Positions 16,101 through 64,000 of a stretch of 64,000 bases of DNA are shown here, one piece after another (positions within the stretch are counted from its first letter, which is position 1; the number at the start of each line of letters is the position of its first letter). Location of the stretch: the NCBI RefSeq assembly GCF_037042905.1, contig NC_087252.1:248001-312000 (forward strand), read 5' to 3'. A program made the translations under genes and the position numbers. This DNA is from Lytechinus pictus. Lineage: Eukaryota. Under the pieces are notes generated by a model. It saw only the letters and a program-made list of their open reading frames with translations. It had not been told where the DNA came from and ran no database searches.

Positions 16101-19100
16101 GTGTGGCATTGAGAGTTGTAGATTTTCTGCATTTTGGGTCACTAATAAGGAGGTCAACATTTGCGATTTTAGAAGACGTGATTCCCGACGATTAATCGAA
16201 CTATTCGATTGTTTTTTCAGGAAATAATCGAATGGTAAAAATGACATTCGTCCCACAGTCCCAGGCCTATTAATAAGTCCTGTGGGGGTCATGGGTATTT
16301 GTAGGTGAAAGTGGATGAGATACATTTTCGCTGTTGCCTTGTTGAAGGCAGTTTGGTTTTATTGTGTAATTTGTATTGTACTGTGATCTCTATTTTACCC
16401 ATATTCTCTTTCTGTTTTATCTCGCAATTCTAGAGAAGCTGATGCAACAATGGAGACTTCCCTGAAGCACATTGATCAGCAAGGTCAGAGGTCAGATGAC
16501 GTTGAATCTAACACTCCATCAACAATACACGGTCATCAAGATGAAACCATCTGTCTGACCAATTCCATGGAGATAGAAGACGAATGTGCAGGAGATGATT
16601 ATACCAATGAAAAGAATGATGAGGATGATGATGCTACCACTGAGAGGAAGGAGATGGATCCATCAGAGGAAAGGGAGCCTGAAAACACCAATAGTGATGA
16701 TTTCTGTGATACCATGGATAGTGGTGATGGTCTTCATAGCGACGAGATGGTGGTTCTTCTGTCAGAAGGAGAGCTCAAGTTTGTTATAAAGCAAGAACCT
16801 GAAGACACCGATGGTGATACCAACATCGATTGTCTTGATTCCTTCCTTCCATCAGTACATACGGAGCTCCAATGCTTTATGAAGGAAAAGCCTGTTGATA
16901 TTGAAGAGGAACGCCCGATTTCTAATACAAAGGAAGAGTCTGCAGACAGTTATGAACGATCTTTTCTGCATGAACCACAATTATGCAGCAATCAAGGTTT
17001 GTTTCTGTATTTGTAGTCAGTGTTGTAGTGCCTTGATGCTCGGTCTTGGCCCTAAGGTGCCTTAAATAAGGCCTACCTATTTTTCCAAAGTCGTAGCCTT
17101 AAGAGAGGGCCTTGGCGATGTTGAGCCTGGGCCTTGGCCTTGGGTATTGAAGAATTGGCCTGGGCCTTGGCCTTGGGTATTGAAGAATTGGCCTGGGCCT
17201 TGGCCTTGGGTATTGAAGAATTGGCCTGGGCCTTGGCCTTGGGTATTGAAGAATTGGCCTGGGCCTTGGCCTTGGGTATTGAAGAATTGGCCTGGGCCTT
17301 GGCTTAGGGTTTGGGCCTTTCCTCCTACACTTATTGTAGTTTGTGTTTGTAGCATGTACTGCGATTTCATGAGGTTTTCGTTCTGGGGGATGGGGTTGGA
17401 CTACAGCTCTCTTTTGCTGTAAAAATGTCAAAATTAAAGGGGGATCTGTTGAACAGTATAAAAATTATGAAATTTTGTATTGTTTGTCAAAATTTATATC
17501 AATTAGCACTGATATTTTGTTTTCATTCTCTTTTGTTTTGTTTTTACAGCAATTAACAATTTTTATTTAGATTAGATTTCAGTTTTGATAAATATTGTTT
17601 ATGTAGCCTTCTACTAATAAAGAATGTAGACCCCAAAATGTTTTCTTAGTTTGTTTTGATAGAGTTTGTGACATACCTATTATAATAAGGATAAATCTAC
17701 ATTCAGATGAATAACATTTTGACACAAAATGTTGCAAATTTTACATTTGTAAAATTAATTCAATTTACAATAATACTAATTACTTTTCTCCTTTATGTTT
17801 ATACCAGTAAAGCTTAAAGTGAGAGCTATTGATTCCTCAGTATTAAACATCTTCACCATATTGTGAGTATCAATAAAGGAAAACAAACTTCAAAGAAAAT
17901 ATGTCTGGGATAAATCTGTTTCTCCCTGCTCTTTTTATCTCAGGTGGGAATCCAAGTATTCAGAGCACCTCTCAAGGAACTGAAAACAAAGGGGATATAT
18001 CAGGTGATACATCATGTGACAGGTCACATGGGAAACATATTCAAGAGAAGTTTCCACTGCAATCCCTTCTTGGAAACCAGTCAGATTTAACTGAGAGAGG
18101 TGGCAGCTCATCAAGTGAGTCTCTGGTACCAAACAAAGTGGACTCTCCCGAAGGAGAGAGTGCTACTACGAGTTCCTCCGTATTAAATGGTGATGGTAGA
18201 AAATTGGATGGGAATACAGACAGCACAGGAAATATGTTTTGTTGTTCAATCTGCAATGAAGAATTCAAAAGCCGGGATTGTTGGTGGAGCCATGTGAAGA
18301 TCCATTGGGAAGATAAGTCTTACAAATGTACCTACTGTGAGGAAAGATTCCGGAAACACAGCGATCTAAGGAATCACTTAACAATCCACGCTGAGGAACG
18401 GTTGAATGTCAGCGACAAACTCCTTGATGGTGACTCAAATCTTCAATCAAGTGTGCTGGTTTATATCAAAGAAAGGCAAGATCAATGCTCAAGTAAAGAT
18501 AAGAGTTCCAAAGAGGATGCATACATGGAAGAGTACTATAAGTGTTCCAGTTGTGAATGGCTGTTCAAATCCTCTGATGCCCTGAAGAGGCACATGGTAT
18601 CATATCACACACTGAAAAGCCATATGGGAATCCACAAAGAAAAAGTGCAGTACTATCAGTGCTCTGTCTGTAAACAATCATATCACATGCTTGGTGAGCT
18701 GAAAAGACATATGAGAATTCACAAAGAAAAATTCCAGTACCAGTGCTCTGTTTGTGAGGCAGCGTTTATCCGATTAGTTAAGCTAAATGCCCATATGCGA
18801 ATGCATACGGAAGAAAGGCAGTATGAATGTTCTGAGTGTAAGGAAGTATTCCACAAAGCTGATCTGATGATGCATGTCAGATCACACGATGTAGAGTGGC
18901 CAAAAAAGTGTTCTTCATGTGATGAAAGCTTTACCTCCTGGGCGCGTCTTATTGGTCATCGACTAAAACACACAGGAGAAAAACCATATTTATGCTCCAT
19001 CTGTAAGGAAGATTTTACAAGAAAAGTTGATTTAGATCGACACATGGAGATTCATACGCAAGAAAAACCTAGTGATGTGAACAAGAATACAAGATCAAGA

Positions 19101-19439
19101 GAAAAGTCATTTGAGTGTACTCAGTGTAAGAAAGCATTCTACAAAGCTCATTGTCTCAAACGTCACATCCGAATCCATACAGGAGAAGAACCATGTAAGT
19201 GCGCTGAGTGCGGGGAGTGCTTTTCATTTTGGGGGCAACTTAGAATTCACCGAATAAAAAAACACACTGGAATAAAACCATATCTGTGCTCCATTTGTGG
19301 GAAACATTTATTGCAAAGACAACATTTAATTGACCATATGAAAATTCATACGGGAGAAAAGCCATATACATGTTCTGTTTGTTCAAAGAGTTTCAGATCT
19401 AAATCATATTTGAGGTCTCACATTCTTAGATGTCACTGA
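1150..19439 (+). CDS. C2H2 zinc-finger gene 1 (predicted ~809 aa; acidic N-terminal region plus 12 C2H2 fingers)
   Basis: Hand-built model with exons 1150-1250 (ATG preceded by in-frame TAA), 1740-1784, 3344-3406, 9694-9738, 10448-10492, 11985-12056, 16434-16996 and 17944-19439. All have AG/GT boundaries and join in frame without stops (2430 nt). The last two exons are well supported by ORFs 16450 and 17901 and by homology to gene 2. The small upstream exons are less certain. Confidence 0.7.
2021..2748. mobile_element. piggyBac-like MITE related to 259-975
   Basis: TTAA-CCCTAATTCTCCCAGG left end and degenerate CCTGGGAG... right end. Internal similarity to 259-975. Confidence 0.55.
4077..5241 (-). 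mobile_element. hAT-like deletion derivative nested in the Kolobok-like element (second copy 6679-7845)
   Basis: 8-bp TSD CTCTGCGC at 4069-4076 and 5242-5249. Imperfect TIR CAGGCTAGGAATTA / CAGTGTCGGAATTA. Relic ORF MDKFL... starts at 4703 on the - strand. Confidence 0.8.
4309..4508. mobile_element. 200-bp hAT-type MITE (second copy 6911-7112)
   Basis: 8-bp TSD CACCAGAG. Ends CAGTGGCGTA / TACGCTAGTG. Same family as 25967-26233. Confidence 0.85.
10875..11790 (+). mobile_element. Helentron-associated (HINE/DINE-1-like) element with ~160-bp internal tandem repeats
   Basis: Subterminal IR GTCTCACCTGCA (10879) / TGCAGGTGAGAC (11753), a nearby inverted GTGAGAC, a (GGC)n tract, about 4.5 core repeats (AATCAAGTATCACTGAAC...AGGTCAAAGGTCA), a short 3' hairpin and T-run flanks. 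Confidence 0.7.
12525..13800 (+). mobile_element. CR1-clade LINE 3' remnant, internally deleted and interrupted by a MITE
   Basis: FNSQKCKV..LHIG...ERDL, then RAPKMI...YTERL|KALNLPSLEYRRRRGDMIQVFKI...FSQRIINDWNSLP...NSFKIRLDK. This is typical of the CR1 ORF2 C-terminus. Confidence 0.85.
12708..13311. mobile_element. Kolobok-like MITE with long TIRs inserted in the CR1 remnant
   Basis: TTAA TSD. AGGACAAGTCCACC / GGTGGACTTGACCT ends with inverted arms over 200 bp. Confidence 0.85.
14922..16269. mobile_element. hAT-like non-autonomous element (1348 bp)
   Basis: 8-bp TSD TTAATAAG, TIR TAGGCCTGGGA and subterminal ATCGA(T/A) repeats. Confidence 0.85.
16434..16996 (+). CDS. gene 1 acidic D/E-rich exon (phase 2 to phase 1) with IKQEPED motif
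   Basis: Acceptor ...tctcgcaattctag and donor CAAG|gtttgt. Part of ORF 16450..17016. Ends LHEPQLCSNQG, matching gene 2 LHEVPSCSTQG. Confidence 0.85.
17125..17310. repeat. 33-bp minisatellite (5 full copies plus a partial) inside a probable hAT-like MITE (~17018-17411)
   Basis: Unit GCCTGGGCCTTGGCCTTGGGTATTGAAGAATTG. Host ends CAGTGTTGTAGT / ACTACAGCTCT with no clean TSD. Confidence 0.85.
17944..19439 (+). CDS. gene 1 terminal exon, 12 C2H2 zinc fingers
   Basis: Acceptor ctttttatctcag|GTGGGAA, phase 1. Repeated CxxC-x12-HxxxH units with TGEKPY linkers in ORF 17901..19439. Confidence 0.93.
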
Positions 19440-26508: not shown

Positions 26509-27994
26509 TAGGGCGAATTTTCGCCTACGTTTTTAACAATAACCGAAAATGCCTGGAAATGGCTTATTTTTAGTTCCAATAATCGATGCTCATTAAAACG
26601 AGCATAGCATTTTTCAAATAAAATGCACACAAATTGCACAAACAACGTGTAAAAGTCACCTATTTGCCGGTGAGACTAGAGAAAAAGAATGGACGTTCCT
26701 GACGTGAAATTTCATTGACCAGGACATGTTCCTCTGAATCCTCTCTCTTAATTTACTGTCCCCCTACCCCCCCCCCAAAAAAAACCCGACTCCGCCCCCC
26801 TCTTAAAAGTTCACGAACAAAGAAAGAGAGATTCGCCCCCTTTATGCAGCGCCATCTCACGACCAGATTATCTCATTATAATGGAAACACCTTTGGCTTT
26901 GTGGAAATGTTTGCAAAAAAATAATCAGCTGAAAGTATTTTTTGCTGAACATTGTCATTGTCGATTACTCATCATCGATCATGGCCGAGATGGGGGTGCC
27001 TGGCCGTCTTGCTTTTTCGCCAACTAGAAAAAAAACTTCAGCCAGAATGGAGTATCAAGATGAACAACAAAATTCTTTCGTTAGACGGGACTCGATCGTC
27101 ACGGCAGCCAGCATCACCGGGGACGACTCCGGCCAACAAGGCACCTATTGCGAATGGATTAATGTTCAATTTAGAATAAGAATTGTTACTCTCTTGCGAT
27201 GGCGATCACTCGCACAAAACCTTGGTTTTAAGGGAGATGATCAAATGGCTTCATATCTGTTAAATATGTAAGTTAATAAAATGTATTTTGGCCTTTTTTG
27301 GGCAGGGCCAGGCAGGGTTGGCAAAAAAAAAAAAAAATGCTAGATCGACGGACTAGTCGGTACAGTACCGTAAGTCCGTATGTATTCGCTAAAAAAGGGA
27401 AACGCTTTCATGTTTGATACTTTTGTCTTGATTTAAATAAAACATCTGTTCGTTTTACAAAAAAAGCGTAATTCCGGTAATCGGTATATGAAAACATGTC
27501 ACTGCGTAACAGTACACTCTACAGAGAGACTAAATTGATTGTGTTGAAACTTTTAATTTGAATCATGTTGATGGGATTTTGAATGATTTTTATTTTCAAA
27601 ATGGAAGAAAGAAAATGAAAATGAACATGACCGAGAGAATGATTGTTTCTTTTTTAGATTGCCCATCCGTCATGTCCATTTCCTGAAAAGTGTCTGCCAG
27701 ATGTGCTTATACATGACAAAAGTTTTTCAGGGATTATAAAAATATCCCTTAGCTTATGTCTCCAATGAGGACGAAGGGAGGGGGGGGGGGGGCTTGTTGA
27801 CGTCGTGTTATATAGGTCTATATATATATAAATATATATTATATATATTTTTTTTGGGGGGAAGGGCTTTGCCATGAATACCAGTGCAGCTGCAGTGGTA
27901 AGAGGTACCTGACCTGGGACCCATTTCTTAGAACTTGTTATTTGCAATAACAGTTAAAAGGTACTGCAACCCTTCTATCTGATTAGCTGATGGT

Positions 27995-28756
27995 AAATTT
28001 GTTTTAGAAATCATACAAGAATTACCAGGCCTGGTTGAGATGAGCAGGAGACAAATTTGTTTTAGAAATCATACAAGAATTACCAGGCCTGGTTGAGATG
28101 AGCAGGAGACAAATTTGTTTTAGAAATCATACAAGAATTACCAGGCCTGGTTGAGATGAGCAGGAGACAAATTTGTTTTAGAAATCATACAAGAATTACC
28201 AGGCCTGGTTGAGATGAGCAGGAGACAAATTTGTTTTAGAAATCATACAAGAATTACCAGGCCTGGTTGAGATGAGCAGGAGACAAATTTGTTTTAGAAA
28301 TCATACAAGAATTACCAGGCCTGGTTGAGATGAGCAGGAGACAAATTTGTTTTAGAAATCATACAAGAATTACCAGGCCTGGTTGAGATGAGCAGGAGAC
28401 AAATTTGTTTTAGAAATCATACAAGAATTACCAGGCCTGGTTGAGATGAGCAGGAGACAAATTTGTTTTAGAAATCATACAAGAATTACCAGGCCTGGTT
28501 GAGATGAGCAGGAGACAAATTTGTTTTAGAAATCATACAAGAATTACCAGGCCTGGTTGAGATGAGCAGGAGACAAATTTGTTTTAGAAATCATACAAGA
28601 ATTACCAGGCCTGGTTGAGATGAGCAGGAGACAAATTTGTTTTAGAAATCATACAAGAATTACCAGGCCTGGTTGAGATGAGCAGGAGACAAATTTGTTT
28701 TAGAAATCATACAAGAATTACCAGGCCTGGTTGAGATGAGCAGGAGACAAATTTGT
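27995..28756. repeat. 58-bp minisatellite, 13 apparently identical copies plus 8 bp
   Basis: Unit AAATTTGTTTTAGAAATCATACAAGAATTACCAGGCCTGGTTGAGATGAGCAGGAGAC. 754 bp = 13 x 58. Confidence 0.95.
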
Positions 28757-28975
28757 GCTGGTGTAAAAAATAGGACTTTATTTTTTTCATTATTTTTTTG
28801 TATTATTTTGATTGGCAGATATCCTACATACCAAGTTGAAGTCCACTCCCCACAAAATAAATTAGATGATTAAAACATAAATTAAGCAATTCAGCATGGA
28901 CGTGCCATCAAGCAACATTCTGCTCACTCAACTATTCAGATACATATGTATTTTTGTATTTTTATTTTATTTCAG

Positions 28976-29023
28976 GTACTATGAGCAAAATGTAGGATCA
29001 ACGTCTCGACAACGAAAGAGAGA
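28976..29023 (+). CDS. gene 2 candidate 48-nt phase 2-2 exon (YYEQNVGSTSRQRKR)
   Basis: Strong acceptor ttttattttatttcag and donor gtaagt. Joins in frame to 31069. The start codon of gene 2 was not located. Confidence 0.5.
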
Positions 29024-29294
29024 GTAAGTGTTAATATGTTCCAGTAATCAGTCATTACATTAGAAATATAATGAATTATACTTCATGTTGTACTCTTTCA
29101 GATGCAAACATTTCAGTAGCTATATACAATAAATAATAGTTGTGAGTGAAAATTGCTATTTATTTCATGAAAGTCTGTCCTGAATCAGAGATATATTCTC
29201 CACATGTGATCTTTGAAGATTAGCTGAACATTGTAATGGAAAATTAATAAAACAGAATCTTGAATATGGCATGTGCTGATAATACATGTAGACA

Positions 29295-31068: not shown

Positions 31069-32270
31069 AACACCTCAGAGGTCTGGAAAAGTGAAAGAAA
31101 CAGTAGCTACTTCATTACACCAAGCTAACGTGGACAGGAGGGATGTCATAGAGTCGGAAGCATTGTCAATACAGAGTCAGAAAGGAGAAAGAATGCACGT
31201 AGAATACCTTGATTCCATGCAGGAAGGAGAAGGTCCAGCTCCAAGGGATGGATGGACTGATGATGGTGGTGATAGTCACGGTGATGCGGTCAGTAGCAAG
31301 GAGATGGTGGCTCGATGGACTGATGATGGTGGTACCCATGGTGATGCGGTCGGTAGCAAGGAGATGGAGGCTCGATGGGCTGGTGATGGTGGTGATACCC
31401 ACGGTGATGCGGTCAGTAGCAAGGAGATGGAGGCTCGATGCACTGATGATGGTGATGATACCCACGGTGATGCGGTCAGTAGCAAGGAGATGGAGGCTCG
31501 ATGGACTGATGATGGTGATGATACCCACGGTGATGCGGTCAGTAGCAAGGAGATGGAGGCTCGATGGACTGATGATTGTGATGATTCCCACGGTGATGCG
31601 GTCGGTAGCAAGGAGATGGAGGCTCGATGGACTGATGATTGTGATGATTCCCACGGTGATGCGGTCGGTAGCAAGGAGATGGAGGCTCGATGGACTGATG
31701 ATGGTGATGATACCCACGGTGATGCGGTCGGTAGCAAGGAGATGGAGGCTCGATGGACTGATGATGGTGATGATACCCACGGTGATGCGGTCAGTAGCAA
31801 GGAGATGGAGGCTCGATGGACTGATGATACCCACGGTGATGCGGTCAGTAGCAAGGAGATGGAGGCTCGATGGACTGATGATGGTGATGATACCCACGGT
31901 GATGCGGTCAGTAGCAAGGAGATGGAGGCTCAATGGACTGATGATGGTGATGATACCCACGGTGATGCGGTCGGTAGTAAGGAGATGGCAGCTTATCCAT
32001 CAGATGGAGGAGAACTCCATTGCTTTATAAAGCAAGAACCTGAAGAAACCAATAGTGATAATGACATCACAAATAAAGATGATACTAATGGTCTCCATAG
32101 CAATGAGAAGGAGGTTCGTTCGTCAGAGGACGGGGCACTTAAGTGTGTTATTAAAGAAGAACCTGTTGATATTGGAGAAGAAGAACCTGTGGACTTTATC
32201 AAGAAAGAACCTGTCGATGATGATGAGGAAGGATCCTATCTGCATGAAGTACCTTCCTGCAGCACACAAG
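31069..32270 (+). CDS. gene 2 acidic exon with 21-aa coding repeat and IKQEP/IKEEP/IKKEP motifs
   Basis: Acceptor ctctgacag and donor CAAG|gtttgt, the same donor as gene 1. Phase 2 to 1. Part of ORF 30977..32284 and homologous to exon 16434-16996. Confidence 0.85.
31253..31990 (+). repeat. coding minisatellite, 12 x 63-bp (21 aa, WTDDGDDTHGDAVSSKEMEAR)
   Basis: Visible in DNA and in ORF 30977. The variant units of 60 and 54 bp keep the frame. Confidence 0.95.
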
Positions 32271-33280: not shown

Positions 33281-34419
33281 GTGGGAACTCAAGTATGCAG
33301 AGCACCTATATGAACTATGGAGATATAGAAAACCGTAGGAGATTGTCAGGTGATGCATCACATGATCAGTCACATGGTAGACATCTATTAGAGGAATTAG
33401 AAACTCTCCTTGAAAACCATTCTAAGCCATCTGCTAGGGCGAGTTGCTCAAGTGAGTATGACTCAAAACTTTTACCAAGGCAATCGGATCATCCACAAGG
33501 ACATAGTTCTGCTGACAATGATACCATATCAGATCATGATGATGGAAGATTAGATGGAGACCTTGCAGTGGGCTGTGGTGTGAAATGTGAAATAATATCA
33601 GGTGATGCATCATGTGACCAATCACATGCTCAAGGACAGACTGCGACTGACAGTGCTGCTGTGTCAGATCATAATGGTGAAAGATTGGATAAAGACATTG
33701 CAATGGGCTGTGGTGTGAAATGTGAAATAATATCAGGTGATGTATCATGTGATAGATCACATGGTCAAGGACAGAGTTCTGCTGACAGTGCTACTATGAG
33801 GGATAAAAGATCAAGTGTGAATTTTGACAGCACAACCAAACATTCTTCCCATGACTGTTCAACGAGAAACACCGAAGGCAAAGGTGAAGGAAGCACTTTC
33901 CTTTGCTCAATTTGCCAGCAAGAATTTACTAGCAGAGACAGTTGGTGGCGGCATGTGAAAATCCACTTGGACGATAGGTCTCTGACCTGTTCCATCTGCA
34001 ATGAAAGATTCCTGCAAACGACCGACCTGAAGAAACACATGGCAGTTCATTCAGGAAAAAAGCAAGATGAACGTTCAGTTGAAGATGATGCCGGTTGTAG
34101 AAGTAAAAAATGTATGGTATTCTACATACAGGGAAAGAAAGATATTGGTTCATCAATGAGCCAGGAGAGTTCAGGACAGAAAGCACGCAAAAGAAACCAC
34201 ATCATTGAAGAATACTATAAGTGTTATTACTGCGATAAGCTTTTTAGCTCTTCCCATAGTCTGCAAAGACACACAAGGTCTCATCTTGAAGAAAAGCCAT
34301 ATGAGTGCTCAGTTTGTAAGAAAACCTTTTCCGAAGATCGTCGGCTGCAAACTCACATGAAAATCCACAAGAATCGTTGGCCAAAGCTCAAAATTCGCTA
34401 TTTCTCTGACCCAACTTAA
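33281..34419 (+). CDS. gene 2 terminal exon A, 4 C2H2 fingers
   Basis: Acceptor ttctactcag|GTGGGAA, phase 1. Fingers are homologous to gene 1 fingers 1-3 (SRDSWWRHVKIH vs SRDCWWSHVKIH; EEYYKC). Confidence 0.88.
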
Positions 34420-36695: not shown

Positions 36696-36990
36696 AGGAG
36701 CGTTGTGGGCTTGTGGCCCAATGGATAAGTCTTCTGACTTTGAAACAGGGTCGTGGGTTAGAATCCCAGCCATTCCCAGCGTAATTTCCTTCAGCAAGAA
36801 AGTTATCCACATTGTGCTGCACTCAACCCAGGTGAGGTGAATGGGTACCTGGCAGGATTAATTCCTTGAATTCATGAGCGCTGAAAGGCAGCTGGAGCTA
36901 AAAAGCCGGGGTAATAATAATAATAACGCACCTCGGGATAGAATATTTCTAGATAGATGGTGCTATGTAAATGCCTGTAATTATTATCTT
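36696..36990 (+). mobile_element. tRNA-derived SINE
   Basis: GTGGCCCAATGGATAAG...GGTTAGAATCCC head, conserved core and ATT-rich tail. Ends about 70 bp upstream of the exon B acceptor. Confidence 0.8.
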
Positions 36991-37059: not shown

Positions 37060-38183
37060 ATGAGAATTCAAGCCAGCTGAGCTTCCTTCAAAGATCAGGT
37101 GATACATCATATGACAGGTCACATGACGAGGAGCATCTGCTGGAAGATTCATCAGATACTATCATTGGGAGCCAATCAAGTTTATCTGCCCATGATGGTC
37201 GCTCTCGTGGCTCTGGTTTCTTATTAAACCAAGTGGATTGCTATCAAGGATCAAGTTCTTCTGAAGTTGTTTCTGAAGCAAATAGTTTTCTCTGTTCTGT
37301 CTGCAAAATGGTGTTCGAAAACAGACATGACTTGTGTAAGCATCTGAAACTTAAACATGGGGTAGAAAAGCCGTATGACTGTACCCTTTGCAGAAGAAGT
37401 TACAAGTTTCGCTGTGAACTGAAGAGACACCTTAAAGGTCATACTGGTGAGAAAGCCTGTTCTTCTGACGTTGTTCCAGAAGCAAATTCCTTTCGTTGTA
37501 TTGTCTGCAAAAAGGTGTTCAATGAAAAAGATGGATTGTGTAAGCATCTCAAATTTATTCGTAGAGTAGAAAAGCCTCATGAATGTACTATTTGTTCAAG
37601 AAATTTTAAGTTTCGCTGCGAGCTGAAGAGACACCTAAGAGATCATAAAGGAGAGATGCGGCATGCATTTTCCTCTGGGGATAAACGCATCTGGGATATG
37701 TACAAGCTAAATGACCTTATGGCAGTCCGCACAACAGGAAAGAAACATTCTACAAGAGAGAAGCAGTTTCAGTGTTCATTCTGCAGTAAGACGTTTACCG
37801 GAAACTCATCCCTGAATCGACACGTAAAATCCCACATGGAGGGAAAACCATTTCAGTGCATGGACTGCAGTATGAGATTTCCCGATGCTAGCGCCCTCGC
37901 TAAGCATGCAACAATGCACTCTGGAGAGAAACCCTTTGAGTGTTCTATATGTAGTAAACGCTATGCTAATAAGTATCACTTCGCTGACCATGTGAAGCTC
38001 CACACTGGTGAGAGACCATACGCTTGCCCGATGTGTGAGAGAAGATTTATTAGAAAAGCAGATATGAAAAGACATGTGACAATACATACTGGAGAAAGAC
38101 CTTATGCTTGTTCTATGTGTCCAAAGAGGTTTAGGAATAGGAATACATTTGTTCTGCATTATGAAAAGACACACAGATACTAA
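37060..38183 (+). CDS. zinc-finger terminal exon B (8 intact plus degenerate C2H2 fingers), probably an alternative last exon of gene 2
   Basis: Acceptor tttgtttttacttag, phase 1. ORF 37005..38183. No upstream coding exon is visible in 34420-37059. Confidence 0.85.
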
Positions 38184-48500: not shown

Positions 48501-48542
48501 ATACACAGCTGAGTGTAAAATTAAACTGGTTCATTTGTATTA

Positions 48543-51500: not shown

Positions 51501-51863
51501 TAGCTAATTATACAAGATGCTGCATTTAAAACCTTAGGCTCTCAAGACAGAAAGTTATACGTGTAGTTCAATTATCACAAAATTTAGATACGCAATAAAT
51601 AATTGTGTGAATTTTCAAAATACTCAAAATAAAACGCTTTTATTGAATATTTTTGTAGATTAAATTAGCTTTTTCATTGTGAACGATGAGGTTGAGTTAC
51701 CTTTCTGGTTAGATCCTGTGGTATGTTGTATTGTGTTTCCAATCGTATGTGTATCCCTGATATTGGTTTGAAGATCATCCTTAATGATGAAGAAAGTGAA
51801 GATGATTAGTCCAATAAATAACACGAAAAATATTGCACGCTCCTTGCTCCATATGTAATCCAT
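48543..51863 (-). CDS. WSCD1/WSCD2-like type II membrane sulfotransferase lacking WSC domains (~309 aa)
   Basis: Exons 51863-51701, 51349-51176, 50033-49830 and 48931-48543, all introns phase 1 GT-AG, 930 nt in frame. N-terminal TM segment AIFFVLFIGLIIFTFFII. Family motifs: [28 protein letters not shown] (5'-PSB), VKTH, ILLVRNPYRALVSEFNR (3'-PB), VYYEQL and ERLAC...EGKFHR. Confidence 0.9.
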
Positions 51864-52230
51864 TATTAGTCTCTATCTACACAAATCTAGTAGGAATTGA
51901 TCTGCGTTAATTTCCTAAAGAATGCTTGGCCCACATCTTAAAGATTGAACGAAGAAATAAACATATGAATTACGGAAAACGCAGAAGATCTATATACACG
52001 TACGCATGCAGCGCTGATGACGAATCTATATTCTCATATACACAGCGAAAAACGTTACTCCATGGACAAAAGGTTTCCTATATACTCGTAAGTAAAAGTT
52101 GGTTGTACAAGAACGAATGTATTGATTATATTGATTATTAAGGGGAGGGGCAAGGTGGAGGTTGAGGGGGGGGGGGGGTAGGGAATGAAAGAAACTTTTC
52201 CCTGAACAATAATAATGCAAATTTAATTAG

Positions 52231-54008: not shown

Positions 54009-54714
54009 TTTGGGTGACTTCTTGTTGGTCTTGGGCTGCATGTTTAGTCCCAGATACAGATAACAATTGCAACAATTTCAAAACAGCATGGAACCCAGTA
54101 TAATAGATTACAGTCACAGATATCAACAATATGTAATTCAGCATTTTAGCATAGGTTTTAATTTATAATAACTTGCGGCTTACTTTTTAGAATACAACGC
54201 AACTCAGAAAAGGCGCCCGCCAGCGCCGTTATTGATTAATACTGAAAGTGATTTTACACTCTATAGACATCACGAACCTTGACTGAATCAATAATGCAAC
54301 ATGAATTCATTTGCATGAATAAAACACATTCACAAAAATCTTATAACAAAGGAGCAGCAACACCTGAACTGAACATGTTAGCTATTGTATGCCGAAGGAC
54401 GTACGGCATATAATATCATATTTCTTGGTGTGAAGCATTGCCACTTGTTAACAATGCAAGATGAATTTTATTGAAAATTAAGGAATAGATTCTTCTTCTA
54501 TCAAGAAAAAAGTTGGGATACACCGGCCAAAACATCTACCTGAGGCAGCCACTTTTAAGATCAAAGATACAGCATTTTGAAGTCTTAATTTTCACAGAAC
54601 AGTGATAGTATGAAGGCAGTTATCATGTATTCCAATACACATGATCAACAGAGACATAACTCATTTTTAAACTGAACTGAAAACATTGAAATACAATAGG
54701 AATTATGTGCCACT

Positions 54715-54978
54715 GGGCATGGTGGCTCAGTGACCGGTGGCTCAGTGGTAGAGCGTCCGCCTCATGAACGGGAGGTCGTGGGTTCGATCCCCGGCCGAGT
54801 CATATATACCAAAGACTTATAAAATGTGACCCTCTGCCTTCTTAATTGGCGCTCAGCATTTAGATTGGAGAAGGGTAATAATAACATATTATGTTATGCA
54901 GGGCCCGCTGGAAGAGCAGTCTTATGATTGAAGTGGCTACCCTGGGTAAATAAAACGTTATTATTTTATCATCATCAG
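54715..54978 (+). mobile_element. tRNA-derived SINE with duplicated A-box
   Basis: GGTGGCTCAGTG occurs twice, then GGTTCGATCCCCGGCCG and an AATAAAA-(TTA/TCA)n tail. Confidence 0.8.
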
Positions 54979-56313
54979 CTCGCCAATATGCATTCTTCTC
55001 ATATCTCACGTATGATTTTGATTTGTATGAGGTATCCATAGGAAGAATTATATGCCTCACAAGATTCCTTTATTGGAACACTTTAAAAGGTTCAAAGGTA
55101 ACAAGTATATGTAATCATTCTAATGCCAAGACAAAATTTTATGATATTATATAACATAGTGATGTAGATCAATTTTTATTTGATGAACCAATCAAGTCCA
55201 TTCTTCGCTAAGTTAAAAAACAGACAGGTCACATGGTAGGATTCAGCCAATTAATTGATTAGAGCCCATATCATGCATGTTATAAACTAACAAAAAGAGC
55301 AAGACATGCAGACAGTTGCAAAGCACACCATACTTGTATTTATCTGAGCCTTGTGAGGGTAGAACAATGTCTAAATGCTTCGTTACACTGAGGACATACA
55401 TACGTTTTTTTTCCGCTCCGGTAAAGGTTCTTATGTGCACATTCAGGCCCTGCACTGATTGACAAGGACCCTTTCCCTGTGGATTAGTATATGCCAAGGT
55501 AGGGCTAGTCGAATTATAACATGATACCTATGTGCCACACCAAAGTAAAAAATAGGGGCCTCTGGAACTAAATATTTGTCTTAAAAATGGAAGTCTCCGG
55601 AACGGCCCTAGAATCAACGATTGCTAAAAATACATTGCTCTGGAACTGACCTGGTCCACAAAAAAAATGGGGGTCTCCGAAAATCAAATGACTCCGCGTC
55701 GATCAAACTCAACACCCCGACCGACTGAGTAGTTCATGATGGGCGTGCACTGGAACAAGAAACCACAAATTTGAGGTTCTCCGGAACGGGGAAAATAGGA
55801 ATTTCTATGGCTTTCCAAATTGGTAATGGTCTGGAACAGAAATTTAGGCAGAAAATGGGGGTCTCGACCGCGGCACATACATATCATACATTTATGCTAA
55901 GTAGCCCCCCTCCCACGGGATTATATGTTCTGCAAGTATCTGGGTAGAACTACAACCACAGACGTTGCATGCGAGGGGCTTCTCACTATTATGGGTTATC
56001 TGGTGTGCTTCCATGTCGGGTTCAATGGCATTTGCTAAGGCAACAATTGCATCGCTGTGAATTTCACACACTATAGGAATCGCCAACATCAACCCTGGAT
56101 TTAACACTATACCCTGTCCTAAATTTAACCCTAAAACTCAAATAATATCCTATTGAAGCCCTAACACTAACCCTATATCTTGGCTGAAATAAAGCCCAGA
56201 GCAATTGCCTCCGGCGCAAATGCCACCCCATGTCAATCTTTTTAGCATAGGTGAGAAGATCTTACTTTGTCACAATGACGAATACGCATAAGGTTTGTCT
56301 CTGGTATAGGGTT

Positions 56314-58130
56314 TTATGTGGGAATAATGGACACTACAATGGTTTCCATTCCTGTGTGTGTATTTCTGTGTTCCACCAGCTCATGTGTACTATTAAATCT
56401 TGCATCACACACCAAGCATGAAAAGGGGTTCTCACTCGTATGAGTTCTTTCGTGTTCAACTAATCTATCTCTCTTCCAATATGTCTTTGAACAAAGTGAA
56501 CACTGGTGTGGCTTTTTCCCTGTATGAACAGTCATATGTGACCTGAGATTACTGTCAAACCTGAAGGTTTTGTCACAAATAGAACAGACGTAAGGTTTTT
56601 CTTTTGTATGAATTCTCATATGTCTTCCGAGATTAGAGCCACGCAGAAATCTTTTCTTGCACACGGGACATTCATGAGGCTTTTCATCTCCATGGGTTCT
56701 CAAATGTTTATCCAGATAAGATATTTGGTAAAATCCTTTGTTGCAAATAGCACACCTAAAAGGTTTTTCTTCTACCGGGTTATTGGAAGATTGTCCATCA
56801 CGTACACTTCCGGTTTCACTTAAATGTGTTCTTTCATGTGCAATCAATTGAGCTCTCTTCCAATATGTCTTTGAACAAAGTGAACACTGGTGTGGCTTTT
56901 TCCCTGTATGAACAGTCATATGTGACCTGAGATTACTGTCAAACCTGAAGGTTTTGTCACAAATAGAACAGACGTAAGGTTTTTCTTTTGTATGAATTCT
57001 CATATGTCTTCCGAGATTAGAGCCACGCAGAAATCTTTTCTTGCACACGGGACATTCATGAGGCTTTTCATCTCCATGGGTTCTCAAATGTTTATCCAGA
57101 TAAGGTATTTGGTAAAATCCTTTGTTGCAAATAGCACACCTAAAAGGTTTTTCTTCTACCGGGTTATTGGAAGATTGTCCATCATGTACACTTCCGGTTT
57201 CACTTAAATGTGTTCTTTCATGTGCAATCAATTGAGCTCTCTTCCAATAGGTCTGCGAACAATGTGAACACTGATGTGGTTTTTCCCCTGTATGGACTGC
57301 CATATGTGCTTTGAGATTACTGGCATCGCCGAAGCATTTGTCACAGATTGAACACGCGTAGGGTTTTTCTCCTGTGTGAATTCGCACATGAGTTCTGAGA
57401 TCATATGCACGCACAAATTTTTTCTCGCACAAAGAACACTCGTGAAGCCTTTCATTTTTGCTTGAACAAACTCGAGTAGACTGTATACTTTCCGTTTTAC
57501 GTACATGTGTTCGTTGGTGTGAAACCAAATGATCTCTCTTCGAAAATGTCTTTGAGCAAAGTGAACACTGATGTGGTTTATTTCCCGTATGGAGAGCAAT
57601 GTGTGTTCTGAGACTACTGGAATAACTGAATCTTTTGTCACAAATAGAACATTCATAGGGTTTTTCTCCTGTATGACTTTGCATATGGGCTCTGAGACTA
57701 GATAGATGTAGATATCGTTCCTTGCAAACAAAACACACGTGAGGCTTTTCTGTTCCATGGGTTTTCATATGAGAATTTAGAGAAGACCTATGCATAAATT
57801 GTCTGTTGCAAACAGAGCAGGCGAAAGGCTTATCTCTCGCTGGGTTGCTGGAAGACAAATGTCTATCATTTCTTATTGAACAAACAGGAGAAGTCTGTAT
57901 GCTTCCTGCACAGGACGTTTCACAGTTCGCACCGGACTCCACTTTGATGTCTGTATCTACATGTACTTCCAATCTTCCATCATTACGATCCACCTCTCTT
58001 CGAGAACAACCCACTTGGTTTGGTGCAGGATAAGAATCATCCTCACTCAGTCGATCTTCTAGAAGATGTTTCCCATGCGACCTATCACCTGACATTTCCT
58101 GAATCCTTCGAGACAAATTTGACTTCCCAC
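56314..58130 (-). CDS. zinc-finger terminal exon, 16 C2H2 fingers (4+3+4+5)
   Basis: Minus-strand acceptor ttctttttactcag|GTGGGAA, phase 1, same junction motif as the + strand exons. ORF 56314..58116. Confidence 0.93.
56469..57249 (-). repeat. 384-bp in-frame tandem duplication of a 4-finger module
   Basis: Offset 384 between 56469 and 56853. Only two differences seen. Confidence 0.95.
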
Positions 58131-60691
58131 CTGAGTAAAAAGAATAGGGTCATAAAAATCTAATGCTGATAGATGTGACACAGTGAACATGGGAGTAGAC
58201 AACACTTACAAGTCATGTTTCAATTAAATGGCTTGCATTTTACATGATGAAAGGCTTATAAAAGGCCCTTGATCAATCCAAAGAATGGAGACCATTGAAT
58301 GACAACTGAAAGAACACAAATTGGAAAGGTCTTTCAGACCTATCTAGGGTTGCTGAAATTTGTGGTCTCAGTGGAAGAGATCCCCTGACACTTCATATCT
58401 TGCTGATCTACACTCCTGATCTTGCAACATTTTATCTTTCAATATTTCAATGATCTTGCAAAGATCTTTCATGCAACGGATGATATTTCGGCAGTCTTTC
58501 TATGGACTTTTACATCTAGAGCTTTCAATTATCTTTTGGGATCTCTCAAGAGTCTGTGAGTGATTTCTGCCCCCCCCCCCCAAAAAAAAAAAGAGTTTGT
58601 CAAAAAGATCATTGAAAAACTAAACAAGAGCTTGATTCAGAGTTCATTAAGAGATCGCTGAAAGACCATGGATGCTACTAAAAGTTCGCTGAATCATTTC
58701 AAAAATATTTTGAGTCTTTTCTCAGAGATATGACAAAATCAGTATTCTCCTGGATGTAATAACTTTTGTCACAAAAATTGTCATAAAGTTTGTCTCCTCT
58801 CTTTACAGCGCACCAGAAATACGTGGCTTTAAATGTGTGTAACCCCAGTATACAAGCAAAAGATATGACAAAAATTGACAGGGTCTAGCAGTAATAAATT
58901 TTGTCATATCTTTTAGTACCTAATATCACGATACCCTGCCGACTAAATGTCAAACATACAATGATATTATTTAGACTAGATTGTGGTATTACTTTCACTC
59001 TTCATCCATGACTATTTTCAAAAGTATTTTTTCATGCTACAATTAGTTAGACCCTACATATAAATTCCTCCTTTTTTTCCCTGGTTTACTTTTTTTCCAT
59101 CTCTCTTCAAAAACTCCTCATCTCCAGGTCTATTTTTGTAGTTAAGCGCAACGATGGACACGCAGTTGCACGATGCCAGCTACTGAATTGAGGATATGCC
59201 CCATTTGCAATAGGGCCTTCCTATTGGGCAGAAGGGCTCCCACTGTGAACTAACAGTGATTTTGATTGGTTTGCCTCCGAAAAGATGGGTGGAAACTTAG
59301 AGAGATATGACAGGGAAAAGACAATGTTCAGAATACCTATTTGTGACAATCATAGCGGTGCCACATCTCTGAGAGAAATGACAAAATTTATGACAAAAGT
59401 TGTGAGTGTTCCAGAATATCATAACATGAATACTGTTAATACCTCCAAGGATGGAGCGAGTTTCAAGGTGATTCAGGGGTTTTACATGCTTTCTTTGGAA
59501 TGGGGGTTTAACTTTTACAAGGTGTATGAACAGGGTGCTCCAAATACTTGATTCTCCAGACGGGTGTTTCATCAGTTAATTGACAATTCGTCTATTGCCA
59601 ACTCGTCCATCACACTCATCACATGGTCTACCTTCAATTTAACAGTTTAATGCTTGTCCGCCTGCCAACATTTCTTTTAACAACGATTCCAGTTGGTCCA
59701 ATAACCATTTAGTCCAATAATCACTTTGTCTTATCACTAGTTCGTCTATTACCATTTCGTTTCATAACATATGAAGAACTGGCTTGGATGAATGGTGGAT
59801 TAGTGGATGAAATCGCAATTAGACCCTGTGGTTAGTGGATGAACTGATGGTAGATGAGTTGGTAAGTGGACGAATTGAATTAGCAATGGAAAATAAACCC
59901 TTTCATCACCAACAAGTTGTCAAATCTGACAAATTATTATTGGCCAAGAAACACAGTTTCCATGGTAACTGTCAGATAAAACATACTTTGTCAAATAAAA
60001 CTTTTCCTAAATGTTTTCTATCTGAGCAACATGAGTGAGTATTTGAATATGGTAATGAAAGAGGAAGGGACTATCTAATCAATATGCAAAAGTCTTTCTT
60101 AATCACACTGTACCCATTCAATAGGTTCTACATTGTACACACTTTTTAAACATACACGTATAGTATGTTTGAAACACATTTTCTTCATCTACAAGCTTAC
60201 AGGAATAAAAACAAGTGGATATCCATTTACTTTTAAAATCAGGAGGAAATGAATTCATTTTCATCCAAGTCCTTTGTAAGACAGGGCCCTCCTCTCACAT
60301 ATAAAGAGCACATGTATGGCTTCTTTCCTTGGTGAATTTCTACAGGGTCAGATGTACTGAGGGTTGACCTTTTGCTTCATATTATATATATATACAGTAC
60401 ACTGTGCCATAGCTTACATGGTATAGTCTCCTTGTACTGTGTAGACATTTGGTGATCAAGTCTTTCTGTGGACTTGTAATAATCAAATTGGACAAATTAT
60501 GAAGTTATCCATTACATGGAATGGTAGTTGCTCAATGGGCATTTCCTCCGCTTTCCATACAATCGTCCTCATCCACCCTGTAGAGAAACACAAACATACT
60601 GATTCAAACCATCTTTTCATCAACAGAACAATCTTCCAATAACCATCAGATATACCAAGGGGTCTGTGCACTTTAGAATCATCAATACCAG

Positions 60692-61121
60692 GGTCTTGTC
60701 TTACAAAGATTTACAGTCAAATCAAACACAGATTATAGTAAAATTTTATGATTTTCCGACAGCCTACATTACGGTACACAATTTATTAAAGGCCTGGTCC
60801 CACTGCACTTATGGATGCAGAGAGGATGTAAAATGGAAAAGAATCTTGCCATCCGTTGGAAAACGTTATGTATCCATTGTGTACTCTTTGCACATGTGTT
60901 TCATACCGATTCACTCTATATCCACTGAGCATCCGTCCACTGTGATTTCATTGTTCACCCATTTTGTCAATTGTCTGGAGCGGATGAAAACGGATGGAGC
61001 CACCCCGAAATGTTGCTTGTCCGCTGTATCCGTTATGAATATGTTTTGTGTCCGTCGGCCAGTGGGACCAGGCATCAAGGTTTGATTTGAAATATATTGC
61101 AAATCTTTGTAAGACCTGCCC
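60692..61121. mobile_element. Harbinger-like MITE with a nested GGCCTGGTCCCACTG-TIR element (~60790-61075)
   Basis: Outer GGGTCTTGTCTTACAAAGATTT / AAATCTTTGTAAGACCTGCCC. Inner GGCCTGGTCCCACTG / CAGTGGGACCAGGC. Confidence 0.6.
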
Positions 61122-62609
61122 CTCATATATCAATTGATGCAATGAGTTATGTTTTATTTCACCTGATGGGTGTTTCATGAAGTTGTAAGTTACCACAGAC
61201 CTCAAGAAAGACTGGTGAACATTTCTTACGCGCTTATTGGTGCATAACATTTACTACCACCACAAGAAAGGACAACAAGTCAATTGTAAAGTCGTGCGTA
61301 ACTTTAAACAGATTTATGAAACACCCACCTGGTGGATAAAATCATACTTAAAGATAATAAACCTCTAACACACATTCACAACTTTCGAAATGAAGAAATC
61401 ATTAGAACTTGAAATATTTTTTTCCTTTATAACATCCAGAATATTCACTTCACAAATCAAATGAATTAATGCTGTGTGGGGTACGATGCATCGTGGTACC
61501 ATCCGAGATAGTAATCATTAAGTGAACAATTTCACGTACATGTAGAATGCATATTACACCTTATTTTTCAATACTTTATAAATTATGTAACCCTACATTG
61601 CACTTAATTTTATATAATGGCATGCAGAGTATACGAAATCACATCGACGGTTGATCGCGCGATCACAAAGCAAATTGGCTTGCACGTCACCCATGCCGTA
61701 ATCTCCACAATTCAATTGTCAATCGTACCAAATTAATTCAAGTTTGTAATTTCAATTACATGTACATGTACGCTAATTAATGCATAAAACCATTATTTGG
61801 CTGTAAATCTTTTTTCTTATAGCCCCCCAAACTGCCAGATTTTGGTCTGGTCACTCTTTGTAGTTTATAAAAAAAATATACATGTATATAAAAAATGGCA
61901 AAATCAAATTTTATGTATTTTATTCTTTTAAATTTGTTCTTTGACTTTGTTTTTCATTTTTTTTTCAAAGGAAATCGTAGGCAGCACGGTTTCAGTCATA
62001 AGTAACATGAAATCTACTGCTTTTATGTTTCAGTATTATATAACATAAAATCTACTGATTTTAACCAGTAAAAATAAAAATGACACGTTATAATATGACT
62101 CTCTAGGACACACTTTACTGTGTTATCATGATAATGGGTACTGACACAAAAGTAAATCCTTGATCAATATAAAAACCTATAATTCTGAGCTAATATGAGT
62201 TGTTTCACAAAGCTTTATGGTCTATTTGCACATGATTTCGAATGCATGCAATTATTTACATTTCCAAACTGATTTCAGTGCAACATGAAGTACTGTATAG
62301 TCATGATTTTGTGTGTTGATGCATCTTTACCCCTTGATTTAGAAATCAACTTTATAAGATCACTGAATTGACCATCATGATTTGTATCTCACAAAGAATT
62401 TTGCTCATGATTCCCAAATGTAAGCACCTTGCAATGTAGATTTCCACACTGATATTAAAATAATGTTGAGTTGAACGCACTGTACATGTATTGTGTTATC
62501 ATTAAAGTGTTTAGTGCACATTGAAACACCATTAAACCATCGTCTTCAAAATCAGCATTATTTATATAATGCAGCTTATCATGAGTTGTTCCACAAAGAG
62601 TGTGACTTA

Positions 62610-62759
62610 TACCTTGGTCACATTTGCTCTACGGCGAGTCGAAAACAGCCGTTTTATTAATTCTAATTCAAACCACCTAGATGTAGTTGGTACAAAAATG
62701 TTAAAACAGCTGTTTTCGACTCGCCGTACGGCCGCCGTAGAGCAAATGTGACCAATGTA
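62610..62759. mobile_element. 150-bp palindromic Harbinger-like MITE
   Basis: TTA TSD and TIR TACCTTGGTCACATTTGCTCTACGGCG. Confidence 0.75.
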
Positions 62760-62960
62760 TTAATAATAATAGGCAGTTCTTGTATAGCGCATAACACATT
62801 ATGAATAACTTCTCTATGCACTTCCAAAGGACTTGGATATTATTACCCCAGCTATAGCTCTGAAAGCAGCCTTCCAGCGCTCAGTGCATTTCAAGGAATA
62901 AATTCCTGTCAGGTACCCATTCACCTCACCTGGGTTGAGTGCAGCACAATGTGGATAAAT
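62760..62960 (-). mobile_element. 5'-truncated SINE (36696 family)
   Basis: Reverse complement of the shared core CACATTGTGCTGCACTCAACCCAGGTGAGGTGAATGGGTACC plus an (ATT)n tail. Confidence 0.75.
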
Positions 62961-63310
62961 TAATATTGCATTTTAAATTTCTAATAGCATGAGATTACAT
63001 AACCCCAGGGTCTGGTCAAACTATATCTCTGATGCTATGTGCATACCTCACCCTGTATTTTTGTTCAGATTTTTTTTGGGTACACAATTATATCAATCCT
63101 TCTGAAAAAGAAACTATGAAAAGATCAAGTCTCAACTTCTCCAAGCAAGAAAATAAACTTTTTTGTTCATGAGAGAATTCATTTTATAAGTCAAGATGCA
63201 TGGTTTTCACAAGTGATTTCTAAAAGATGTAGATGATTATTTCATGCATAAATGCTTCCATCTCTAATGTCTTTTGCAATGAAATAATTCATTTAAAATC
63301 AGGATGATTC

Positions 63311-64000
63311 TTAAGAAGCATGGGTTTTCATATGTACTTTAAGAGTGCTCCTTTCCCGAAAGCTCTTCCCACAAACAGAACACGGATAGGGTTTCTCTCC
63401 TGTATGGATCCTCATATGACGCTTGAAATCGTTCTTTTTTCCAAATTTTTTCTCACAAACCGAGCACGAAAACGGCTTTTCTCCCGTGTGAATTTTCTGA
63501 TGATCCACAAGCCGACTCTTGTCAGAGAAAGTTTTGCCACAAGACGCACAATTAAAGGGTCTCTCTCCTGTGTGGATTCTTACATGTCTCGTTAGATGGG
63601 CAGTTTGTGAAAACGTCTTGTTACAAAATGAGCACACGTAGGGCTTTTCACCTGTATGAGATCTTGTGTGTCTTGCGAGTGTATCAACGCGACTGAACCT
63701 CATATCGCAGTACACACACTGATGTGGCTTTTCACCCGTATGGGTTTTGATGTGAGCGTCCAGGCTTGTCCTTCGGGCGTACGTCTTCTCGCAAAATGGA
63801 CACTGCTGGCTCTTTTCTCCCGAATGAACCGCCATATGTAACTTGAGATGACATCTTTCACTGAAGCTTTTGTCACAAATAGTACACACATATGGCTTCT
63901 CACCTGTATGGCTTCTCATGTGTCTCTTCAGTCCATTGCTGAATTGAAATCGTTTCTTGCAGAAGGTGCATTCGTGAGGTCTCTCTTCAGCATGTATCTG
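63311..64000 (-). CDS. 3' part of a zinc-finger terminal exon (at least 8 C2H2 fingers); continues beyond the window
   Basis: Open frame from 64000 (QIHAEERPHECTFC...) to TAA at 63311, with canonical HTGEKP linkers. Confidence 0.93.
   Translation of the reverse strand, partial: QIHAEERPHECTFCKKRFQFSNGLKRHMRSHTGEKPYVCTICDKSFSERCHLKLHMAVHSGEKSQQCPFCEKTYARRTSLDAHIKTHTGEKPHQCVYCDMRFSRVDTLARHTRSHTGEKPYVCSFCNKTFSQTAHLTRHVRIHTGERPFNCASCGKTFSDKSRLVDHQKIHTGEKPFSCSVCEKKFGKKNDFKRHMRIHTGEKPYPCSVCGKSFRERSTLKVHMKTHAS

Follow-up and report, generated by a model that had tools for sequence, protein, structure and literature searches.

Three related zinc-finger loci lie in the stretch analysed here, a 64,000-nucleotide window of the sea urchin Lytechinus pictus genome (RefSeq assembly GCF_037042905.1, contig NC_087252.1, positions 248,001 to 312,000), and their features are collected in Table 1. 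On the minus strand, a frame of C2H2 fingers extends inward from the window edge and closes with a stop that ends at 63311 (exon A), and a second finger exon (exon B) follows it in the frame 58149-56314, with 16 fingers, after a gap of 5180 bases. Both had been proposed in an earlier reading of the letters alone (the sequence-only reading). The acceptor of exon A is expected approximately 422 bases past 64000, provided that the exon is unbroken; its position and phase, outside the window, are taken from the protein model P0007. AATAAA sites are found below exon A at 62658, 61924 and 61158, with read depth dropping near 61924/61158, and below exon B at 55180 and 55074, with read depth declining nearby.

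Table 1 Features of the three finger loci and of the interval between exons A and B (window coordinates).
Feature	Coordinates	Strand	Remarks
Proximal finger exon A, in-window part	63311..64000	-	8 of 9 fingers and stop; sense read depth 14-41
Exon A 3' UTR (probable)	61400..63310	-	sense depth 3-12 in unique bins; X1-run contig 61402-62631
High-copy dispersed repeat (candidate SINE of the sequence-only reading)	62838..62961	.	~1000-fold read pile-up
MITE-like inverted-repeat element	62609..62760	.	arms 28 and 27 nt, 96% complementary
Inverted-repeat element	61148..61346	.	39-nt arms, 77%
Inverted-repeat element, repetitive	60685..61128	.	31-nt arms, 81%; repeat-type read pile-up
Decayed third finger cassette (probable)	60228..60337	-	resembles exon A from its last finger through the stop region to the start of the UTR; without open frame
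Polypyrimidine tract and AG of phase-1 acceptor, exon B	58131..58144	-
Distal finger exon B	56314..58130	-	103-residue leader, 16 fingers, stop; P0001 residues 260-863; sense depth 7-16
Recent tandem duplication within exon B, 384 bases (four fingers), in frame	56469..57249	-	397 bases, 2 differences
Exon B 3' UTR (probable), faint finger-like remnants	55074..56313	-	sense depth 5-13 down to bin 55134-55450
Second case, first coding exon, motif related to predicted ribbon-helix-helix head	26981..27268	+	P0012/P0013 residues 1-96
Second case, small shared exon	28977..29024	+	P0012/P0013 residues 97-112
Second case, shared acidic exon, end CAAG/gt	31069..32270	+
Second case, proximal finger exon, 4 fingers	33281..34419	+	P0012, P0015
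Second case, distal finger exon, 8 canonical fingers	37060..38183	+	acceptor tag/AT, phase 1; P0013, P0014
Third paralogue	16434..19439	+	acidic exon 16434-16996, single finger exon 17944-19439

Finger exons and the interval between them

Exon B starts at 58130 on the minus strand behind the phase-1 acceptor ttctttttactcag/GTGGGAA, as claimed, and the likeness drawn earlier to the acceptors at 17944 and 33281 is borne out by a 12-mer, CTCAGGTGGGAA, found at all three. With both strands scanned there are exactly three copies (17939, 33276 and 58124 on the minus strand). With one mismatch allowed 0.24 copies are expected, and three were reached in none of 100 shuffles, figures that hold for a 12-mer picked after the sites had been seen. 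Judged from the sequence, the match is one of common descent among the finger exons.

The two minus-strand exons have different recognition residues throughout. Over eight fingers, exon A matches its S. purpuratus orthologue at 25 of 32 recognition residues, and it looks like the conserved original cassette. Over 481 aligned columns exon B and its L. variegatus counterpart are 81% identical, and the reading frame is kept; the four-finger duplication is missing from the L. variegatus protein, and at 58118 an allele with an in-frame 3-base insertion has the L. variegatus length. The internal duplication is also visible in the reads, as an X1 contig at 56853-57249 with approximately twofold the flanking depth. 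Exon B looks like a faster-changing addition.

The interval 58131-63310 contains inverted-repeat elements, in line with the MITEs reported there by the sequence-only reading. Further copies of its dispersed repeat lie at 36800-36919 and 20840-20931, and ARAGORN detected no tRNA head in the interval. An acidic exon is missing from it, as had been stated: a profile of the acidic-exon end, made from four proteins of which none has its acidic exon in the window, gave zero matches in 58131-63310 and recovers the two acidic exons of the plus strand (iE 5e-6 and 0.04). Protein and profile comparison likewise found no coding 5' exons for the 58130 exon within 58131-63310.

A feature at 60228-60337 had been overlooked. 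Its alignment score is 153, against 108 +/- 10 for shuffled sequence (0 of 300 shuffles as high) and 88-115 across 14 control strands, for a query selected after the match was seen. This is probably a failed cassette copy. A cryptic acceptor at 60577 on the minus strand has a frame of only 14 codons behind it, and the region 60220-60700 in full has no score above shuffles against any of five finger exons; hence, the claim is restricted to 60228-60337.

Shared front end and transcription

P0001 and P0007 are automatic gene models from public prediction, P0007 being listed without name or accession. Their first 260 residues are identical and close with the acidic motif and ...PSCSQQG, which gives both minus-strand exons the common front end, acidic motif included, that had been anticipated. 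After residue 260, P0001 continues into the 58130 exon (16 fingers) and P0007 into the exon stopping at 63311 (9 fingers). Within the window, the 260-residue part finds just paralogue-level matches (at most 33%), with no match in the interval, which agrees with the placement of the shared 5' exons beyond the window. Corresponding joins are predicted in other species: L. variegatus P0002/P0003 have the orthologous 5' part joined to exon B, and S. purpuratus P0006 has an acidic exon joined to the exon A orthologue. A protein search did not turn up an L. variegatus protein in which the 5' part continues into exon A. The N-terminus of S. purpuratus P0006 and P0009 is HTH-psq/Tc5, possibly a transposon exon or an annotation join.

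Transcription was assessed in three raw stranded RNA runs with the same species label, from rRNA-depleted libraries, in 317-base depth bins. In all three, exons A and B are both covered in one orientation (depths in Table 1), which fits minus-strand RNA when the usual library type is assumed, and the depth of exon B is a third to half that of exon A. Seven bins between the exons (58304-60522) have a depth of 0-3.7, a dip that by itself is no finding. None of the 15 joints listed runs from 58130 into 54500-64000 (depth at 58118: 3, 20 and 12), and neither junction-spanning reads nor loose ends at 58130 are among those listed; the shared donor is outside the mapped stretch. As no junction read is among those listed, splicing to A and B rests on gene models and indirect reads. 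The 58130 exon is transcribed and has an intact finger array, and no coding front end could be detected for it over the 5.2 kb upstream. Very probably it is an alternative last exon of the 63311-exon gene, in which shared 5' exons lying beyond the window would be spliced to either exon.

In the plus-strand gene, both joins (33281 and 37060) are present in two sets of protein models, P0012/P0013 and P0014/P0015, whose isoforms share 512 and 410 residues upstream, respectively. It is likely that each of these two neighbouring genes makes two DNA-binding proteins. At the third paralogue, a second finger exon is absent up to the next gene. The suggestion that alternative last exons are a family property thus stands for two of three loci in the window and for one Strongylocentrotus gene model, which has similar cassettes; the third locus has a single finger exon. 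Leader similarity does not discriminate one origin from two for the distal cassettes of the plus- and minus-strand genes.

Homologous acceptors and leaders suggest that a terminal finger exon was tandem-duplicated together with its phase-1 acceptor. Going by the public models, the donor of the acidic exon would then be spliced to acceptor A, with polyadenylation at approximately 61-62 kb, or A would be skipped in favour of acceptor B. Since the 260 residues are shared and the finger sets are unrelated, isoforms A and B would bind different DNA, as their recognition residues suggest.

The head motif of the first exon

The shared first exon of the minus-strand gene is predicted to encode a ribbon-helix-helix homodimer. 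AlphaFold models its head motif with an extended start followed by two helices (pLDDT 88.6). The top Foldseek rows are CopG at E 0.24, below significance with none < 0.001, and the top VIA rows are NikR, MazE, MatP, TCP and ParD at Z 5.0-5.7, also below significance (Z < 8). Pfam gave no ribbon-helix-helix family for the head at E up to 1. As a homodimer the head scores 0.51 against 0.00 for the best control (pLDDT 78-79), with contacts that agree in at least 95% between runs, a score that may stem from the predictor's memory of solved dimers. In calibration, 21 of 30 solved microbial homodimers reached the dimer mark and none of 23 monomers did; in the eukaryotic set, 17 of 29 homodimers reached it (1 of 7 where no older relative had been solved), against none of 30 monomers. 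The predicted contacts in the 49-residue piece, P0001 residues 30-78, pair residues 5-9 with 5-9 and 36-40 with 36-40, where memory of solved dimers is again possible.

For the plus-strand motif, the Atlas model rows fit a ribbon-helix-helix, and the single-sequence model is all helix with no such top matches. Searched against 1.84 billion representatives, the 49-residue motif gave four matches: P0002, P0005 and two repetitive proteins, the latter dropped as noise. The motifs of both genes retrieve the same three animal clusters (scores < 0.9, to be taken as leads), and the head motif may be widespread.

Most known examples of the ribbon-helix-helix fold are bacterial repressors and plant TCP factors. 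As in CopG, Arc, the NikR N-terminus, the MazE/ParD antitoxins and plant TCP, a strand and two helices are predicted here, with dimerization through strand-strand and second-helix contacts; unlike the known proteins, the head has no sequence-profile match and belongs to an animal protein fused to C2H2 arrays. Given a first exon that is predicted to form such a dimer, the A and B isoforms could pair through the head, each with itself and with the other.

Alternative readings, known systems and meaning

Exon B could also be a surplus copy that is reached when exon A is skipped through leaky splicing; it would be translated occasionally, have no selected function and be on the way to decay like 60228-60337. 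It occurs only in Lytechinus among 50 candidates, adjoins the decayed cassette and has one broken finger in L. variegatus; the differences listed change amino acids in four of four cases in B against none of five in A, two of the four in B being sites that tell the internal duplicate copies apart. We nevertheless regard this reading as improbable, given a 604-codon open frame kept in both species despite insertions, deletions and the 384-base duplication, and a depth relative to exon A that holds up in three of three runs. Slightly less probable still is that exon B is a separate unit with an internal promoter and a short non-coding first exon, encoding a head-less protein that starts at the leader Met, and that the join in the models is wrong or reflects a minor form. 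An in-frame Met does lie 11 codons into the exon B leader, a very short interval exon would be diluted in 317-base bins, and P0011 is a stand-alone ORF with a Strongylocentrotus-like cassette, although it comes from an automatic gene caller. Against this, the join to the 5' exons is predicted alike in two species, the acceptor and phase of exon B are conserved, no joint from 58130 into the interval is among those listed and sense depth in the interval is low. Joining of the isoforms in trans from a separate precursor starting in the interval, the mode of the closest architectural analogues mod(mdg4) and lola (PMC11426971, in part), is very unlikely, as little sense RNA lies right upstream of 58130 in rRNA-depleted libraries and ordinary cis-splicing suffices for two exons on the same strand, 5 kb apart and downstream of shared exons.

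Alternative last exons of one gene, the reading we prefer, have a close counterpart in Drosophila lola and mod(mdg4), in which constant front exons are combined with alternative 3' exons that each carry their own DNA-binding fingers. According to the available part of 10.1101/132027, lola has constant N-terminal exons and alternative 3' exons giving 20 isoforms, 17 with fingers, and the available part of PMC11426971 has heteromer formation via the constant domain broadening specificity. The fly genes have a BTB head, whereas Pfam found no BTB family in P0001, P0007 or the plus-strand first exon and the urchin head is a predicted 45-residue ribbon-helix-helix; the urchin genes have 2 live cassettes with arrays of 4-16 fingers instead of 20-30 cassettes, and no sign of trans-splicing. 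Because the TTK-type BTB is arthropod-specific, the urchin design would be a separate origin.

Vertebrate KRAB-ZNF and FiNZ-ZNF genes have small N-terminal exons and one large finger exon and lie in tandem clusters (PMC2604467 and PMC10547256, available parts), the FiNZ domain being described as cyprinid-specific in what is available of PMC10547256. The urchin genes resemble them in their small 5' exons, one large finger exon per transcript, acidic linker and fast array change, and differ from KRAB-ZNF in that Pfam finds no KRAB and canonical vertebrate genes have one finger exon. Some KRAB-ZNF loci may carry a duplicated finger exon, for which the literature search gave no confirmation. As with ordinary alternative last exons, upstream exons are shared in the public models, acceptors are in the same phase, and stops and probable 3' UTRs are separate; unlike them, the exons are tandem duplicates that hold an entire DNA-binding array, in a layout that paralogues repeat.

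A wider reading, tentative and somewhat doubtful, is that a sea-urchin family joins a ribbon-helix-helix dimer head to interchangeable finger cassettes as a second origin of the lola design: specificities would be gained by last-exon duplication, one cassette conserved while its neighbours diverge or decay, and isoforms would pair through the head. Public annotation already contains the alternative-exon isoforms, and this makes the finding less surprising. A literature search over result listings and the openings of abstracts, in a collection with few subscription papers, gave no account of sea-urchin genes with alternative finger exons, nor of an animal ribbon-helix-helix finger family.

Copying the last exon with its acceptor, and letting splicing select, would be a route to larger zinc-finger repertoires without whole-gene duplication. 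Finger families are large and little studied in sea urchins, where gene numbers would come out wrong if taken from finger ORFs or from longest isoforms. If the head is truly a ribbon-helix-helix dimer, it would identify an effector domain in an invertebrate finger family and predict isoform heterodimers, a prediction that would be testable in a standard embryo model.

Finger exons and the interval between them

Five exons encoding C2H2 fingers lie in the window, two of them on the minus strand: exon A (proximal) and exon B (distal). Their coordinates, the 5,180-base gap between them and the acceptor at 58130 all match those of the sequence-only reading. The claimed near-identity of that acceptor with those at 17944 and 33281 also holds, given that a 12-mer across the acceptor is present in the window at these three places and no others (0.24 expected). 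The four in-window acceptors can be aligned from the end of the intron into the exon, over its first 70-100 bases, which argues that the finger exons were duplicated together with their splice sites.

Finger exons of the window and the tandem duplication in exon B
Feature	Position	Strand
Finger exon	17944-19439	+
Finger exon	33281-34419	+
Finger exon	37060-38183	+
Finger exon B	58130-56314	-
Finger exon A	stop at 63311	-
Four-finger tandem duplication, 384-base unit	56469-57249	-

The interval (58131-63310) contains inverted-repeat elements and one high-copy repeat, where MITEs and a SINE had been described. It was also said to have no acidic exon, and a profile of acidic-exon ends that recovers both plus-strand acidic exons has no match there. 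A profile of the first-exon motif matched solely the exon from which it partly derives. At 60228-60337 (-), a segment resembles exon A from its last finger through the stop region to where the UTR starts, with an alignment score of 153 (300 shuffles, 108 +/- 10, maximum 141; 14 control strands, 88-115); because the query was picked after the match had been noticed, we grade it as a probable decayed cassette, that is, an alternative finger-array end exon. Faint finger-like remnants, broken up by repeats, occur at 55349-56047 (-), in what is probably the 3' UTR of exon B. They score above shuffles solely in comparison with exon B (best score 250, shuffled maximum 238), an exon that may earlier have extended further. 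At 54730-54804 (+) ARAGORN calls a tRNA-Met-like sequence; given the pile-up of many divergent reads at 54736-54950, the call probably marks a SINE head of tRNA origin. Directly downstream of exon B is a multi-exon gene (~48540-52020, -), presumably sulfotransferase-like by motif resemblance.

A shared front end in gene models and separate transcript blocks

Residues 1-262 of P0001, the predicted protein ending in exon B, matched five proteins (1608 candidates), and in one cluster (P0004, P0007 and P0008) the C-terminal part is exon A. P0007 and P0001 have 260 identical residues and diverge directly past the phase-1 junction, which bears out the expected common acidic exon beyond the window edge; within the window this part has paralogue-level matches only. 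The exon B leader, which precedes its fingers, matched just P0001 (named Lytechinus pictus, 100% identity) and P0002 (L. variegatus, 79%) among 50 candidates, which identifies the window as sea-urchin DNA. P0007 places the exon A acceptor ~422 bases past the edge, which fits a contig of run X1 that reaches 357 bases past it with a 39-base piece resembling the exon B leader.

RNA reads from three rRNA-depleted stranded runs (~6% of each) and one contig set were examined over 54500-64000. On both exons the reads have a single orientation, with a depth of 14-41 on exon A, where reads from related fingers may inflate it, and 7-16 on exon B. Coverage extends to ~61400 behind A and ~55150 behind B, both ends near AATAAA sites, and in seven bins at 58304-60522 depth is 0-3.7 in the exon A/B orientation, where dips can stem from filtering. 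Of 28 joints, 15 are listed, and none of these connects 58130 with a site in 54500-64000, as would be expected from a donor beyond that stretch. A and B are thus expressed as separate blocks, and the joining splice comes from gene models.

Exons A and B are intact, same-phase finger exons, both transcribed and served by one front end in public models. The observation is real and was correctly read, and we consider it highly probable that A and B are alternative last exons and that the distal cassette is live. That B is a leaky spare exon is unlikely; the exon is intact and, in L. pictus, has gained an in-frame four-finger duplication, with double depth in X1. Slightly less likely still is an internal promoter, and trans-splicing of the isoforms is very improbable. 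No coding front end lies between A and B; the earlier reading had named a promoter plus coding 5' exons there as the counter-evidence.

Recurrence and evolution of the cassettes

In the plus-strand gene, P0012 and P0013 have 512 common residues and continue into the 33281 or the 37060 exon; a second, slightly different protein set (P0014/P0015) has the same two joins. All such joins are known here from automatic gene models. The third locus (16434-19439) has a single finger exon, so the proposed family property stands at two of the three loci in the window. Duplicated finger exons are found in Broad, in fruitless and among KRAB loci. The two-isoform arrangement is already in automatic annotation and apparently undescribed as a family design; we found no account of such alternative finger exons in sea urchins in literature with thin coverage of subscription papers.

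The acidic exon of this plus-strand gene carries a coding tandem repeat (31250-31990, +; unit ~21 residues), ~100 residues shorter in the second set (P0015, 789 aa; P0012, 891 aa). Perfect intronic tandem arrays lie at ~28000-28760 (~60-base units) and, directly behind an acidic-exon donor, at ~17120-17310 (39-base units). Within the first finger gene, one intron has a near-perfect 2.6-kb tandem duplication (~3690-8950; identical ORFs at 4503-4841 and 7107-7445), either recent or an assembly artefact.

Against the S. purpuratus models, exon A shows 64% identity across 352 columns, and in eight fingers 25 of the 32 recognition residues are conserved; all five polymorphisms listed are silent. 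Exon B was found in Lytechinus only (81% identity, L. pictus vs L. variegatus), and all four differences listed change residues, two being sites that tell the duplicate copies apart. The 384-base copies differ solely at 56721/57105 and 56801/57185; at 57105 and 56801 all reads of the three runs carry the other copy's base, so the reference may hold private alleles or errors at these sites. In P0009, an S. purpuratus-like model, two further blocks that open with the same leader motif, one of them with fingers, come after the exon A orthologue, which suggests tandem cassettes there too; the fingers of these blocks do not match exon B. In P0006 and P0009 a pogo/Tc5-type HTH-psq region takes the place of the head motif ahead of the orthologous acidic and finger exons; this is a transposase fusion that uses an alternative first exon, or else the two were joined in annotation. 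P0005, a further L. pictus finger protein outside the window, has the head motif, acidic end and finger-exon leader of the same family.

The predicted head

Pfam finds fingers and no other domain in P0001 and P0007. For the shared first-exon motif, or head (residues 30-78 of P0001), an extended start and two helices are predicted (pLDDT 88.6). Foldseek ranks CopG and TCP-domain chains first (best E 0.24, none <0.001), and VIA ranks NikR, MazE6, MatP, TCP and ParD2 (Z 5.7-5.4, rmsd 2.3-3.5, 46-48 aligned), where Z <8 may reflect a common arrangement. Atlas models of both genes' motifs rank CopG-family proteins first, below the Atlas naming bar. Predicted in two copies, the head piece gives a dimer score of 0.51 (best control 0.00) with strand-strand and second-helix contacts, agreement of at least 95% between runs and pLDDT 78-79. 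The dimer mark was passed by 21 of the 30 solved microbial homodimers and by none of 23 monomers; for eukaryotic homodimers the count was 17 of 29, but just 1 of 7 where no older solved relative exists, and the score may therefore reflect memory of solved dimers. Against a ribbon-helix-helix fold count the all-helix single-sequence model of the plus-strand motif and the 19% identity between the two genes' motifs. On these models, a ribbon-helix-helix dimer is somewhat favoured.

Drosophila lola and mod(mdg4) likewise combine a constant oligomerising head with alternative finger tails (10.1101/132027, PMC11426971), whereas oligomerisation of the sea-urchin head is predicted only; lacking BTB, the sea-urchin genes fall outside that family. 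Vertebrate poly-finger genes have a similar exon layout (PMC2604467, PMC10547256), but the sea-urchin genes are without KRAB. The accessible part of PMC2865497 says nothing about duplicated finger exons.

Use of acceptor A, followed by polyadenylation downstream of that exon, would compete with skipping to acceptor B. The two isoforms would have different DNA targets and could pair via their common head, and it is this predicted head that raises the case above ordinary alternative splicing.
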